From Clostridia bacterium (GTDB lineage: Bacteria; Bacillota; Clostridia; UMGS1883), in NCBI GenBank assembly GCA_045615705.1, contig JAZLFH010000012.1, forward strand, positions 4,417 through 68,416: a DNA stretch of 64,000 nucleotides, read 5' to 3'. Of this stretch, positions 35,321 to 60,585 are shown piece by piece (the stretch's first letter is position 1; the number at the start of each line of letters is the position of its first letter). The position numbers and the translations under genes were made by a program. The notes below the pieces were generated by a model. That model saw nothing but the letters and a program-made list of their open reading frames with translations, was not told the DNA's origin and made no database searches.

Positions 35321-35394
35321 GGCACCATAGCCAAGTGGTAAGGCAGAGGCCTGCAAAGCCTTTATCCCCAGTTCAAGTCTGGGTGGTGCCTCCA
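35321..35394 (+). tRNA. tRNA-Cys (GCA)
   Basis: The cloverleaf was read by eye. The acceptor is GGCACCA/TGGTGCC, the anticodon loop is CTGCAAA, the T-loop is GTTCAAGTC, and CCA is encoded. Confidence 0.95.
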
Positions 35395-35395
35395 G

Positions 35396-35427
35396 AAAAA
35401 ACGACAAGTGGAAACTTGTCGTTTTTT
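35396..35427 (+). terminator. intrinsic terminator after tRNA-Cys
   Basis: The sequence is AAAAAACGACAAGT-GGAA-ACTTGTCGTTTTTT. Confidence 0.6.
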
Positions 35428-35640
35428 CAACTAAATCCGTCCTTACGGACGGGTGAAATCGCCTGCGGCGATGAAATCTGCTTCGCAGATGAAATCCGAC
35501 TTCGTCGTGTTAAAGAGGACGGATTTAATTTCACCAAAGCCGAAGGCTTTGATTTCATCCAAAACAAGTTTTGGATTTCACCGTGACGGAGTCACGATTT
35601 CATTAATAATAACAGATATCTATATTGTCTACGATTTTCA
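35423..35640 (+). repeat. modular word/mini-hairpin array, left inverted copy (trails tRNA-Cys)
   Basis: The words GTGAAATC and GATGAAATC(x2), then ATTTCACC, GATTTCATC, GATTTCAC and GATTTCAT, alternate with short hairpins. It is the reverse complement of 36278-36448. Confidence 0.75.
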
Positions 35641-35677
35641 AAAAAAAAGCACTTTGCGAAACGCAAAGTGCTTTTTT
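35641..35677. terminator. bidirectional terminator downstream of the small zinc-ribbon gene
   Basis: The sequence is AAAAAAAAGCACTTTGCG-AAA-CGCAAAGTGCTTTTTT. Confidence 0.6.
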
Positions 35678-35703
35678 AAATTGTGGATAAAAAACATCAA
35701 AAT

Positions 35704-35991
35704 TTATGCTCGGAAATTATGTCCGCATTCGTGACAATAGTAAATTCTTCTTCTGTTTGAAAACCATCTTCTGGATTGCCAAACATGTCCTTTTCCTGAT
35801 GTATTCTTTAAAATAGCCATCCACCAGTCATAACAAATGAAAATCATTAAACCAATACACCATTTTATCATTATCCATATAAAATAATAGATTCCGAACA
35901 AAATAGTCCATAAACAACCATGTTTATTCATTTCATTTGACAGCTGAACCTTTGTACTACCGCATTTTGGACATTTTACATTGATTGCCAA
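35704..35991 (-). CDS. small membrane protein with a split zinc ribbon (CPKC ... CHEC)
   Basis: 95 aa with a TTG start 9 nt after AAAGGAG. The N-terminal CPKCGS and C-terminal CHECGH flank two Trp/Ile-rich TM segments. I recognise no family. Confidence 0.45.
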   Translation of the reverse strand: MAINVKCPKCGSTKVQLSNEMNKHGCLWTILFGIYYFIWIMIKWCIGLMIFICYDWWMAILKNTSGKGHVWQSRRWFSNRRRIYYCHECGHNFRA

Positions 35992-36016
35992 TTTTCTTTT
36001 CTCCTTTGTATTAATT

Positions 36017-36045
36017 AAAAAATGCGTCTACCGAAGCAGACGCAC
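36017..36045 (-). terminator. terminator-like hairpin in the 5' leader of the small gene (possible attenuator)
   Basis: On the minus strand it reads GTGCGTCTGC-TTCG-GTAGACGCAT followed by TTTTT. It ends about 20 nt before the RBS. Confidence 0.45.
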
Positions 36046-36277
36046 AAAAAACGCAAACTCCGATAGTCGCCAAACTAATCATACACAAAATGAGCTATTA
36101 TACATACCTACATTGTGGAGCTTGCTGTTTTTAACAACATTCAACAATATAAGTATGCAAATATGAAGCCCATTTTATTAAAAAATAAAATAACTCAATT
36201 TTGCGTAAATATTTAATTAGTTTGGCATAATTATTGTACCTTCCTTCTTCCTTCTTACATATTACTTTTTACTTTCC

Positions 36278-36448
36278 AAAAATCGTGTATGATATAGATA
36301 TCCGATTATTTTTATGAAATCGTGGCTTTGCCACGGTGAAATTAAATCCGTCCTCTTTAACCCGACGAAGTCGGATTTCATCTGCGATAGCAGATTTCAT
36401 CGCCGCAGGCAATTTCACCCGTCCGATAGGACGGATTTAGTTGAAAAA
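36278..36448 (-). repeat. modular word/mini-hairpin array, right inverted copy (trails the displaced tRNA-Arg 3' fragment)
   Basis: Its reverse complement aligns with 35423-35640, apart from a 47-nt module indel and loop or compensatory changes. Confidence 0.75.
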
Positions 36449-36476
36449 AGCACCGACAAAGTCGATGCTTTTTTCA

Positions 36477-36494
36477 TGGCGTGCCATGAGGGAT
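36477..36494 (-). other. duplicated 3'-terminal 18 nt of tRNA-Arg (att-like direct repeat)
   Basis: TGGCGTGCCATGAGGGAT is identical to 36675-36692, which is the 3' end of the intact tRNA-Arg. Confidence 0.75.
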
Positions 36495-36674
36495 ACAGAT
36501 GCTACGCATCTTGCGTGCTTGCCCACCCAAATGCTTCGCATTTCGGTACCGGGCTTTGCACCAACTTCGCTAAAAACGGTTATCAACCGTTTTTTTAACG
36601 CTCGTTGCCCTCTCAGGGTTTAAGTCCCAATATAGAAACATTAAAGCAGAGAACATAAAATGTTCTCTGCTTTT
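36495..36674. mobile_element. 180-bp insert between tRNA-Arg and its displaced 3' fragment (remnant or miniature integrative element?)
   Basis: It is bounded by the 18-nt direct repeat. It contains its own terminator next to the tRNA and further mini-hairpins (AGATGC-TAC-GCATCT, AAATGC-TTC-GCATTT). It has no ORF. Confidence 0.35.
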
Positions 36675-36751
36675 TGGCGTGCCATGAGGGATTCGAACCC
36701 CCGACCTTATGGTCCGTAGCCATACGCTCTATCCAGCTGAGCTAATGGCAC
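36675..36751 (-). tRNA. tRNA-Arg (ACG)
   Basis: The minus strand reads GTGCCATTAGCTCAGCTGGATAGAGC...CTACGGA...GGTTCGAATCCCTCATGGCACGCCA. Confidence 0.95.
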
Positions 36752-60105: not shown

Positions 60106-60205
60106 AAACACCATCTCCATTAGTATATGTAGATAATTTTATCATATAATGTCGATTTTGTCTATAAAAATTTGGGTATGTGATTTTAATAAAAAAATAA
60201 TGCAA

Positions 60206-60304
60206 TGATGTGATGTGTTCCATTCACTCACCGTAGGTGAACATCATGTCCGAAGGACACATCACACACGAAGTGTGCATCATGTTCCGTGAGGAACACA
60301 TCGT
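60206..60304 (-). repeat. variant word/mini-hairpin array (CATCA/GATG words)
   Basis: The hairpins are TCACC-GTA-GGTGA, TGTCC-GAA-GGACA, CACAC-GAA-GTGTG and TGTTCC-GTGA-GGAACA. They are separated by ACATCA(T/C) words. The outer pairing is GATGTGTTCC/GGAACACATC. Confidence 0.6.
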
Positions 60305-60418
60305 TCAAAAAAGTCCCTTTTGTTTTATCACATAGTTTTAAAATATCAACGAAAAAGACATTGATAAATTTTTAAGTTTAGATTCAGCCATGTTGTTATC
60401 ACCTCAAATATTTTATTT

Positions 60419-60541
60419 AGTGAAATATCGGCTTTGCGGATGTGAAATGAAATAAGTCCTGTTACGCGCGCAGGCATTTCACACGCCGTAGGCGTATTTC
60501 ACGCACGAAGTGCATTTCACAAATCCGAAGGATTTATTTCG
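60419..60541 (-). repeat. word/mini-hairpin array trailing tRNA-Tyr and its terminator
   Basis: The minus strand has GTGAAATG, GTGAAATA and GTGAAATG, followed by CATTTCAC and ATTTCAC. The hairpins are AATCC-TTC-GGATT, GCAC-TTC-GTGC and ACGCC-TAC-GGCGT. Confidence 0.7.
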
Positions 60542-60544
60542 CTT

Positions 60545-60585
60545 AAAAAACCTCTTTTGTCTTGGTAGACAAAAGAGGTTTTTTT
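60545..60585 (-). terminator. terminator downstream of tRNA-Tyr
   Basis: The sequence is AAAAAACCTCTTTTGTC-TTGGTA-GACAAAAGAGGTTTTTTT. Confidence 0.6.

Follow-up and report, generated by a model that had tools for sequence, protein, structure and literature searches.

Gut-1 hairpin arrays of gut Clostridia: a repeat element behind tRNA and tmRNA genes and its candidate four-helix-bundle partner

The 64,000-nt stretch of Clostridia bacterium contig JAZLFH010000012.1 analysed here (hereafter the window) carries, between convergent tRNA-Cys and tRNA-Arg genes, two facing arrays of short hairpins, copies A and B, which are members of the Rfam family Gut-1 (RF01706). In gut Clostridia, Gut-1 elements are modular, occur in many chromosomal copies and lie directly behind the bidirectional terminator of tRNA and transfer-messenger RNA (tmRNA) transcription units. 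Added here to what is known of the family are its hosts (mainly Oscillospirales-type gut Clostridia, represented by metagenome-assembled genomes, MAGs), its fixed address behind tRNA/tmRNA terminators, an architecture about three times the size of the published model, a sequence signature that raises doubt about its being RNA, and a candidate protein partner from PF05635, the poorly understood Avd/S23p family. If the link to this protein were true, the biology of tRNA gene flanks would be tied to a motif and a protein family that are both orphans, and the large PF05635 family would gain its first function outside diversity-generating retroelements (DGRs).

The first-pass annotation of this DNA had not recognised the element, and had itself named a match to a described family as grounds against its reading. 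Such a match exists. Relative to the curated gathering score of RF01706 (50 bits), copy A scored 67.5 bits (35428-35500, + strand, covering only part of its type-1 array), copy B 60.9 bits (36370-36443, - strand) and a third copy, C, 75.5 bits (60471-60544, - strand, behind tRNA-Thr/tRNA-Tyr). A weak reverse-strand match in the Rfam E-value scan (33.6 bits, 35547-35624) marks the second half of copy A, and the RF01706 feature of three consecutive short hairpins with GUGAAAU linkers is present in the cmscan alignment. Gut-1 was described by Weinberg et al. in 2010 from 43 examples, all in human-gut metagenome reads, with no organism, context or function (PMC2864571). No other paper naming Gut-1 or RF01706 was found in the literature library searched, and the Rfam entry has since 2010 held a one-sentence description and the family type 'sRNA'. 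The first-pass observation was accurate, but the motif it concerned was already on record, though unexplained, and its novelty as first stated is low; the context added here brings this old orphan within reach of experiment. The window copies resemble published Gut-1 in their three to four short hairpins, GUGAAAU separators and scores above gathering. However, the published model spans 77 nt, whereas the conserved element found here spans about 170-220 nt and includes a closing helix, an alternative hairpin and a convergent second array; likewise, the published examples come from human-gut reads only, whereas those reported here come from Clostridia MAGs of many animals and are linked to tRNA/tmRNA terminators and a PF05635 gene.

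Genomic address and architecture of Gut-1

A pattern scan of species-representative genomes returned at least 120 loci, and a script requiring hairpins between linkers retained 75 elements in 68 loci among the matches listed. Hosts were almost all MAGs labelled Clostridia, Acutalibacteraceae, Oscillospiraceae, Ruminococcaceae, Faecousia or Eubacteriales, with a minority of a few Akkermansiaceae and one Bacteroidaceae bin, and the host animals comprised human, goat, sheep, deer, buffalo and chicken (gut samples throughout). Viral origin was rejected, real arrays being present in only 5 of 120 pattern matches from IMG/VR. After exclusion of 20 elements that lay within 250 nt of a contig end and were not judgeable, 28 of the 55 evaluable elements had a tRNA or tmRNA 3' end 32-139 nt before their start and pointing at them, compared with a chance expectation of about 1.75% in the same loci. 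The genes trailed in this way included 14 different tRNA isoacceptors and one tmRNA gene (locus L084, Rfam-confirmed). Orientation of the element relative to the tRNA was always the same, and many elements ended at a second terminator. Within the window, an element stood behind all three tRNA transcription units. These counts bear out the earlier suggestion that the array is a conserved tRNA-trailer element, and the array is not unique to this locus.

At two loci (L065 and L118) the element was located between tRNA-Arg and tRNA-His, 10-19 nt before tRNA-His, and these orthologous positions were kept between species. Wherever else a locus had two elements (L042, L083, L075, L103, L274, L277 and L281), these were in direct orientation. 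The 3884-bp contig of L075 had 141-bp identical ends inside a Gut-1-type element flanked by long AT-rich hairpins (ATCATAATTTATCGGGC...). It carries ordinary genes, for a metallophosphoesterase and for a dGTPase-like protein with an HD domain, and probably represents an assembly collapsed at the repeat, not a circle.

The complete element is a dyad of about 170-220 bp, made up of a type-1 array and a convergent type-2 array. On the tRNA strand the order is the terminator T1, the motif TTTTTCA, a degenerate linker (L0), hairpins H1-H4 with RTGAAAT spacers, the closing-helix strand X'd, and one to four hairpins with ATTTCAY spacers; arrays were found on both strands in 28 elements. L0 and the 5' arm of H1 pair with X'd and the first inverted linker to form a closing helix, P1, which was a perfect helix of 9-13 bp in 26 of 31 curated elements and had at least seven different core sequences. 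In a 26-sequence alignment, 96.7% of the P1 cells were paired and 8 of its 12 pairs had compensatory changes. H1, a local hairpin that competes with P1 and is mutually exclusive with it, was 99.3% paired, and 5 of its 6 pairs had compensatory changes. Both helices scored above every one of 500 shuffles and every slid register, so that one strand covaries with two partners. Stem sequences were variable overall (246 distinct stems), the conserved part being the RTGAAAT linker.

Arrays contained three or four linkers at a linker-to-linker period of 16-27 nt, and are therefore neither coding nor helically phased. Protein coding, for which the open reading frame (ORF) at 35453-35734 and the 18-nt period of copy A had been considered, was ruled out by this family-wide range of periods. 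A ladder of GTGAAAT:ATTTCAC pairings between linkers was also rejected on inspection, as the R/Y position lacked covariation in the nested register. A promoter scan for a promoter belonging to the arrays gave background-level matches only, and the -10-like boxes beside type-2 arrays are those of genes that lie downstream on the tRNA strand. A resemblance of the heptamer to parS, Rex or cre half-sites was set aside, the arrangement being inconsistent.

The window pair had been described at first pass as the same array on both strands, separated by a handful of substitutions. This description holds over the first 115 nt or so: a repeat search of the window gave 95% identity over 61 nt (35422-35482 and 36389-36449) and 98% over 53 nt (35483-35535 and 36335-36387), and the aligned copies showed four differences, two of them in loops, one at a stem end and one lengthening a stem. 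It understates the divergence farther on, where the tails were 78% identical over 64 nt (35575-35638 and 36279-36342) and about 40 nt (35536-35574), corresponding to exactly two hairpin-plus-linker modules, were unique to copy A. Repeats of such length and identity cannot have arisen by chance. The context of a tRNA plus terminator was found for both copies as reported, an A-tract, hairpin and T-tract directly preceding each, with differing stems. Copies A and B are paralogous Gut-1 members that face each other because tRNA-Cys and tRNA-Arg converge, each with its own trailer. Their near-identity reflects recent copying or gene conversion, a process confined to the array since the stems of T1(A) and T1(B) are unrelated; the T1(B) stem recurs behind the tmRNA gene of L084. 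The repeats could support homologous inversion of 35641-36277.

On the copy B side, the displaced tRNA-Arg 3' fragment noted earlier proved to be an exact 18-nt duplicate. The layout of tRNA, insert, duplicated tRNA 3' end, T1 and Gut-1 array matches exactly that of locus L115, in which the insert holds an intact PF05635 gene. For this reason the insert (36495-36674) and displaced fragment are best read, from their layout, as the presumed scar left by integration of a small element at the 3' end of the tRNA, and the Gut-1 array of copy B as the original downstream neighbour of tRNA-Arg.

A four-helix-bundle gene beside the arrays

PF05635, the family of 23S rRNA intervening sequence (IVS) and Avd-like four-helix-bundle proteins (its link to Avd is described in PMC10053308), was the top Pfam family among 107 ORFs flanking elements (6 matches) and the only clearly recurrent one, followed by AraC-type helix-turn-helix domains (4 matches). 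The linked gene reached a PF05635 score of 96.3 bits (cutoff 33.8 bits). By tblastn, a PF05635 homolog was detected in 12 of the 68 loci and stood beside the array in 11. The association was also assessed in reverse, starting from the protein, using clusters P0188, P0209 and P0174 at 30 places, 26 of which had at least 200 nt of upstream sequence. A convergent Gut-1 pair was present upstream of the gene in 26 of these 26 evaluable places, with the type-2 array ending about 54 nt before the start codon. An identical 116-aa PF05635 protein occurred behind different tRNAs and with different downstream genes. The protein family as a whole is very large, a cutoff of E <= 1e-20 giving at least 7961 clusters, most of them on contigs shorter than 2 kb, and the closest solved relative is PDB 2RLD, an uncharacterised, pentamer-forming protein (E = 6.7e-26).

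Gut-1 pairs were found on both sides of the PF05635 gene in L274, L277 and L281. A role of the arrays as boundaries of a PF05635 cassette was nevertheless rejected, since no array lay downstream of the gene in L013, L054, L025 and L094, unlike in the three loci just named. L277 (1-1210) contains a tandem copy, at whose junction codon 11 of the PF05635 gene is fused with the 3' half of a T1 terminator. The downstream pair of L277 is a homologue of window copy A in which stems have changed by compensation. More distant PF05635 genes (41%-42% identity) in L029 and L115 were bracketed by repeats of other types, namely GTGAAATGAGCAAT tandem repeats and GAAATGAGAAATTAGAAAT runs in L029 (940-1040 and 1090-1500), and CT-rich inverted repeats around the gene in L115 (4950-5650). 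There are hints that the whole PF05635 protein family may travel with repeat arrays. In one context (L252-L261), a small zinc-ribbon ORF of 47 aa, or of 103-180 aa with a transmembrane segment, began about 43 nt after the PF05635 gene, and in L252 and L253 an IS3-type transposase (rve) was located about 700 bp beyond it. No reverse transcriptase domain was found among the called genes of the 30 loci or among recurrent neighbour families, the flanks being visible for only 1.5-4 kb.

Folded strand, related systems and competing explanations

Base pairing in the stems bears on which molecule folds. The 246 distinct array hairpins contained 1278 Watson-Crick, 9 G-T and 14 A-C pairs (643, 4 and 4 in the curated set), unlike the acceptor and T stems of tRNAs in the same loci (622 Watson-Crick, 55 G-T and 2 A-C). 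The loops are more informative. On the GTGAAAT strand, 95 of 119 triloops were TNC or TNT and 49 of 70 tetraloops were TNNC, with a 5'C-G3' closing pair in 178 of the 189 tri- and tetraloops. Read on the ATTTCAY strand, these become C(GNA)G and C(GNNA)G loops (76 GNA and 19 ANA of 119 triloops, 49 GNNA of 70 tetraloops). Judged by their letters, the array loops appear to be of the DNA mini-hairpin type d(cGNAg)/d(cGNNAg), with C-G closure and a G..A loop of 3-4 nt, while about half of the tetraloops were GNYA, which is not a stable RNA class. DNA mini-hairpins such as d(GCGAAGC) and d(GCGAAAGC) melt at 76.5 C, compared with 39 C for r(GCGAAAGC); the motif is poorly bound by single-stranded DNA-binding protein (SSB) and is found at the phage G4, ssiA and N4 single-strand initiation sites (PMC13037366), and its stability depends on the C-G closing pair (PMC3201870). 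Predicted folding energies (z of about -4.3 on both strands, as RNA and as DNA) discriminated neither strand nor chemistry. The wobble and loop statistics showed no RNA-strand signature and call into question whether Gut-1 is RNA at all. The folded strand is most likely the complement of the Rfam orientation, and the loops favour DNA, which appears to fit them better than RNA does, with read-through RNA remaining as the other candidate molecule.

Among known systems, the repetitive extragenic palindromic (REP) elements of Enterobacteria and Pseudomonas, including BIMEs and REPINs and served by REP-associated tyrosine transposases (RAYTs), resemble Gut-1 in several respects. They are extragenic, lie at the 3' ends of transcription units and form clusters of alternating orientation; their units are palindromes that carry a short, conserved, single-stranded motif at the foot of the hairpin; and they occur as several families per genome, with within-genome homogeneity and a small protein gene flanked by repeats. 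However, Gut-1 stems are not conserved, only the heptamer and loop ends being so, the motif is RTGAAAT instead of GTAG, the associated gene encodes a four-helix bundle, and the position is specifically behind tRNA/tmRNA genes. No Y1/HUH RAYT gene was found within 10 kb of the A/B locus or among the recurrent families of the 107 flanking ORFs (whole genomes were not searched). Integron attC sites, including clusters lacking an integrase (CALINs), likewise conserve structure over sequence, plausibly fold as single-stranded DNA and punctuate small cassettes. An attC identity was rejected, in agreement with the first-pass annotation, as Gut-1 has many mini-hairpins and not a single bulged hairpin, and lacks R''/L''-L'/R' boxes and extrahelical bases; the Rfam E-value scan gave no attC match, and no integron integrase or tyrosine recombinase was located near the A/B locus. 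The same annotation had set CRISPR aside, and the architecture does differ, 7-nt constant units alternating with variable palindromes in place of identical 24-40-nt repeats with unique, non-palindromic spacers. Two further candidates were discarded, a type III toxin-antitoxin array of ToxI type (units differ in sequence and in length, 16-27 nt, and downstream genes are diverse) and integrase arm sites (the arrays lie outside the duplicated tRNA fragment). DNA mini-hairpin sites of the form d(GCGNAGC)/d(GCGNNAGC), known from the phage G4 origin, ssiA and N4 virion RNA polymerase promoters, share with Gut-1 C-G-closed GNA/GNNA loops, short stems and an arrangement of several in a row (PMC13037366), but each occurs as a lone locus in the single-stranded DNA of a phage or plasmid and has a known polymerase or primase partner, whereas Gut-1 is chromosomal, multi-copy and tRNA-linked. 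The 23S rRNA IVS protein S23p and the DGR protein Avd belong to the same PF05635 family as the Gut-1 partner, and here too the gene stands beside a stable-RNA gene and is bracketed by structured repeats, as in IVSs. Unlike those genes, the Gut-1-linked gene is not inside rRNA, and the loci showed neither a reverse transcriptase nor template/variable repeats within the 1.5-4 kb of visible flank; a hairpin-array partner is not known to have been described for the family.

We give close to an even chance to a two-component reading of Gut-1 along REP/RAYT lines. The element would act once its strands separate and self-fold. Its hairpins, maintained as perfect palindromes whose G..A loops on the ATTTCAY strand are closed by C-G, would be sequence-free scaffolds that display the RTGAAAT heptamer to a sequence-specific reader. 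The best candidate for the reader would be the Avd-like PF05635 protein, whose gene is always preceded by an array pair. Elements that lack the gene, A and B among them, would depend on protein supplied in trans, much as REP elements depend on their RAYT. More specifically, and more tentatively, Gut-1 may be no independent small RNA but the nucleic-acid half of such a system, in which arrays of DNA-type mini-hairpins present the heptamer to the PF05635 protein, encoded beside some of the elements, and mark tRNA/tmRNA 3' flanks, a landing zone for small cassettes. Sister families (those with ATGATG linkers, and the other repeats around the more distant PF05635 genes of L029 and L115) would have cognate specificities of their own. 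We consider this fuller version rather less likely to be right than wrong.

Several points weigh against the two-component proposal. About a third of the elements (27 of 75) were interior to their locus with no adjoining tRNA, and the 64-kb window contains only a 17-codon remnant of a PF05635 gene. We infer the partnership from adjacency alone, and adjacency could instead reflect a shared preference for tRNA 3' flanks, or could mean that the array is upstream regulatory DNA of the PF05635 gene. Wobble pairs were also scarce in the neighbouring T1 terminators (205 Watson-Crick, 4 G-T and 1 A-C), and their absence from the arrays is therefore suggestive of DNA and not decisive. The element of L065 and L118 must be transcribed, as an operon spacer, and the proposal calls for a still hypothetical cellular process that unwinds the DNA of the element. 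A rival explanation, which we regard as unlikely yet serious, is that Gut-1 is a small non-coding RNA in the GUGAAAU sense, which would be produced by read-through of a leaky tRNA terminator or as an operon spacer and be freed by tRNA processing. Its GUGAAAU linkers, being single-stranded, would make it a sponge or a platform for binding, perhaps within a ribonucleoprotein that includes the four-helix-bundle protein. Avd-family proteins bind RNA in DGRs, which counts for this explanation, as do the constant orientation to the tRNA, the absence of room for a promoter in the tRNA-Arg/tRNA-His spacer of L065/L118, the second terminator at the end of many elements, the match to the Rfam model and the covariation rating of the discoverers, who graded Gut-1 a confident RNA (PMC2864571). 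It sits poorly with the failure to find a promoter of the arrays' own and with the strong terminator that precedes them. Loops on the GUGAAAU strand are unremarkable C(UNC)G triloops, the stable loop motifs being on the complementary strand; G-U is not favoured over A-C on either strand, unlike in tRNA stems; and the Rfam model covers a third of the conserved element, whose second half has the opposite polarity.

The location of stable loops on the strand where the hairpin precedes a U-rich linker would be expected if the dyad were a bidirectional transcription insulator, with stable hairpins and AUUUCAY linkers as weak terminators or pause sites. It would back up the canonical terminator, block 3' exonucleases and shield the tRNA gene and its neighbours from read-through. 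Elements always lie between transcription units and abut bidirectional terminators, a terminator scan flagged array units in the ATTTCAY orientation, and perfect palindromes suit folding on both strands. We nonetheless find this explanation improbable: from each direction the terminator-like array is met second, after the non-terminating one, and three U residues make a poor U-tract. The absolute conservation of the heptamer (including CAC/CAT) and a sister family with ATGATG linkers and no U-tract are left unaccounted for, and termination explains neither the closing helix and hairpin 1 nor the linkage to a four-helix bundle. Lower still in our estimate is the idea that the arrays are selfish or neutral palindromic repeats, accumulating in a harmless site behind tRNA terminators, spread and homogenised by recombination and devoid of host function, even though they are multi-copy, often at contig ends and in concerted evolution within a genome, gain and lose modules at linkers, and occur as several subfamilies in one genome. 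The heptamer, C-G closing pair and loop end positions are conserved across bacterial families while stems change by compensation, which argues for purifying selection on a specific folded form, and the L065/L118 positions are kept between species. The first-pass annotation had seen in the inverted pair a one-gene cassette, and the corresponding explanation, that the two inverted arrays form the termini of a mobile or invertible segment that carries the small gene (a composite similar to miniature inverted-repeat transposable elements, or an invertible cassette), is in our view very improbable. In its favour are the 115-215-nt inverted repeats with 95%-98% identity placed 640 bp apart, arrays that punctuate short gene sets in L042, L083, L075, L274, L277 and L281, and the status of tRNA 3' ends as integration hot spots (window copy B and L115). 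The pair is instead accounted for by two convergent tRNA genes, one for each array, and elements in all other two-element loci are direct and not inverted. Although the dyad arrays could serve as ends of such an element, no recombinase lay within 10 kb, no clear target-site duplication was seen (only a possible TTTT flank at A and B, none at L042), the enclosed gene is not a recurrent partner, and the duplicated tRNA-Arg fragment is outside the pair and not at its boundary.

Features of the window

Coordinates are collected in Table 1. As first reported, the roughly 640 bp between the copies hold one small gene, a 95-aa ORF, with terminators on either side, and no recombinase was found within about 10 kb of the A/B locus.

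Table 1. Features of the A/B locus and the copy C region (window positions)
Feature	Position	Strand	Source
tRNA-Cys(GCA), trailed by copy A	35321-35394	+	ARAGORN; Rfam tRNA
T1(A), bidirectional intrinsic terminator between tRNA-Cys and array: A-tract, 15-bp perfect inverted repeat, T-tract	35395-35428	.	
Copy A type-1 array: degenerate linker L0 (ACTAAAT), H1-H4, GTGAAAT/ATGAAAT spacers	35429-35534	+	
Copy A closing-helix strands X and X'd	X 35432-35443; X'd 35516-35527	+	
Copy A type-2 array, convergent with type-1: 3 hairpins, 4 linkers; GTGAAAT on - (ATTTCAY on +)	35528-35603	-	
Copy A tail, AT-rich, 78% common to copy B	35604-35640	.	
Bidirectional terminator closing the small gene; far-side bound of copy A	35643-35677	.	
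95-aa ORF: split zinc ribbon (CPKC...CHEC), two predicted transmembrane helices, weak Zn-ribbon Pfam matches only	35704-35991	-	
Terminator-like leader hairpin just upstream of the ribosome-binding site of the small gene	36022-36045	-	
TGTATAAT -10 box, inferred promoter of the small gene	~36097-36104	-	
Copy B tail and shortened type-2 array (1 hairpin, 2 linkers)	36278-36342	+	
Copy B type-1 array	36335-36446	-	
T1(B), bidirectional terminator, stem unrelated to T1(A)	36442-36476	.	
Displaced tRNA-Arg 3' end, 18 nt, exact duplicate of 36675-36692	36477-36494	-	
180-bp insert separating tRNA-Arg from its duplicated 3' end: two terminator-like hairpins, two C(GNA)G mini-hairpins	36495-36674	-	
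tRNA-Arg(ACG)	36675-36751	-	ARAGORN; Rfam
Sister array: closing helix GATGTGTTCC/GGAACACATC, four C(GNA)G-type hairpins, ATGATG/TGATGT linkers	60205-60310	-	
17-codon remnant (MAESKLKNLSMSFSLIF) of PF05635 gene, with ribosome-binding site, directly after copy C	60338-60391	-	
Copy C, different subfamily: 4-hairpin type-1 array and degenerate one-hairpin type-2 remnant (60420-60453)	60420-60548	-	

The enclosed zinc-ribbon gene was not a recurrent partner of arrays at the other loci or among the 107 flanking ORFs, and homology to the zinc-ribbon ORF behind the PF05635 gene was considered and rejected, none being found. Its leader of about 100 nt (35992-36110, - strand) starts at the TGTATAAT box and ends in the terminator hairpin before the ribosome-binding site. 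Such an arrangement could act as an attenuator or in the manner of a riboswitch; Rfam gave no match to the leader. The 20-odd neighbouring genes are all housekeeping, with PcrA, HutP, Cmk, IspH-S1, SASP, an SSB-like protein, PdaB and CwlD on one side and M19 dipeptidase, YraN, RNase HII, RbgA, signal peptidase and others on the other. Window proteins were singletons in the searched collection, exact look-ups gave no match, and the collections contained no close relative of the organism. The closest CwlD homologues were at most 62% identical and lacked a common tRNA-Cys neighbourhood, and a CwlD-anchored metagenome scan returned irrelevant loci only.

Copy C lies directly behind tRNA-Thr/tRNA-Tyr and their terminator. 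The remnant after it is the truncated 5' end of a PF05635 gene, the promoter of which is missing at the window site. Beyond the remnant, the sister array is preceded by TTTTTTGAAC and has the same design as Gut-1, with no match in Rfam. The ATGATG-linker family to which it belongs was also detected at L012 (3331-3399), where the closing helix and loop type are again as in Gut-1.

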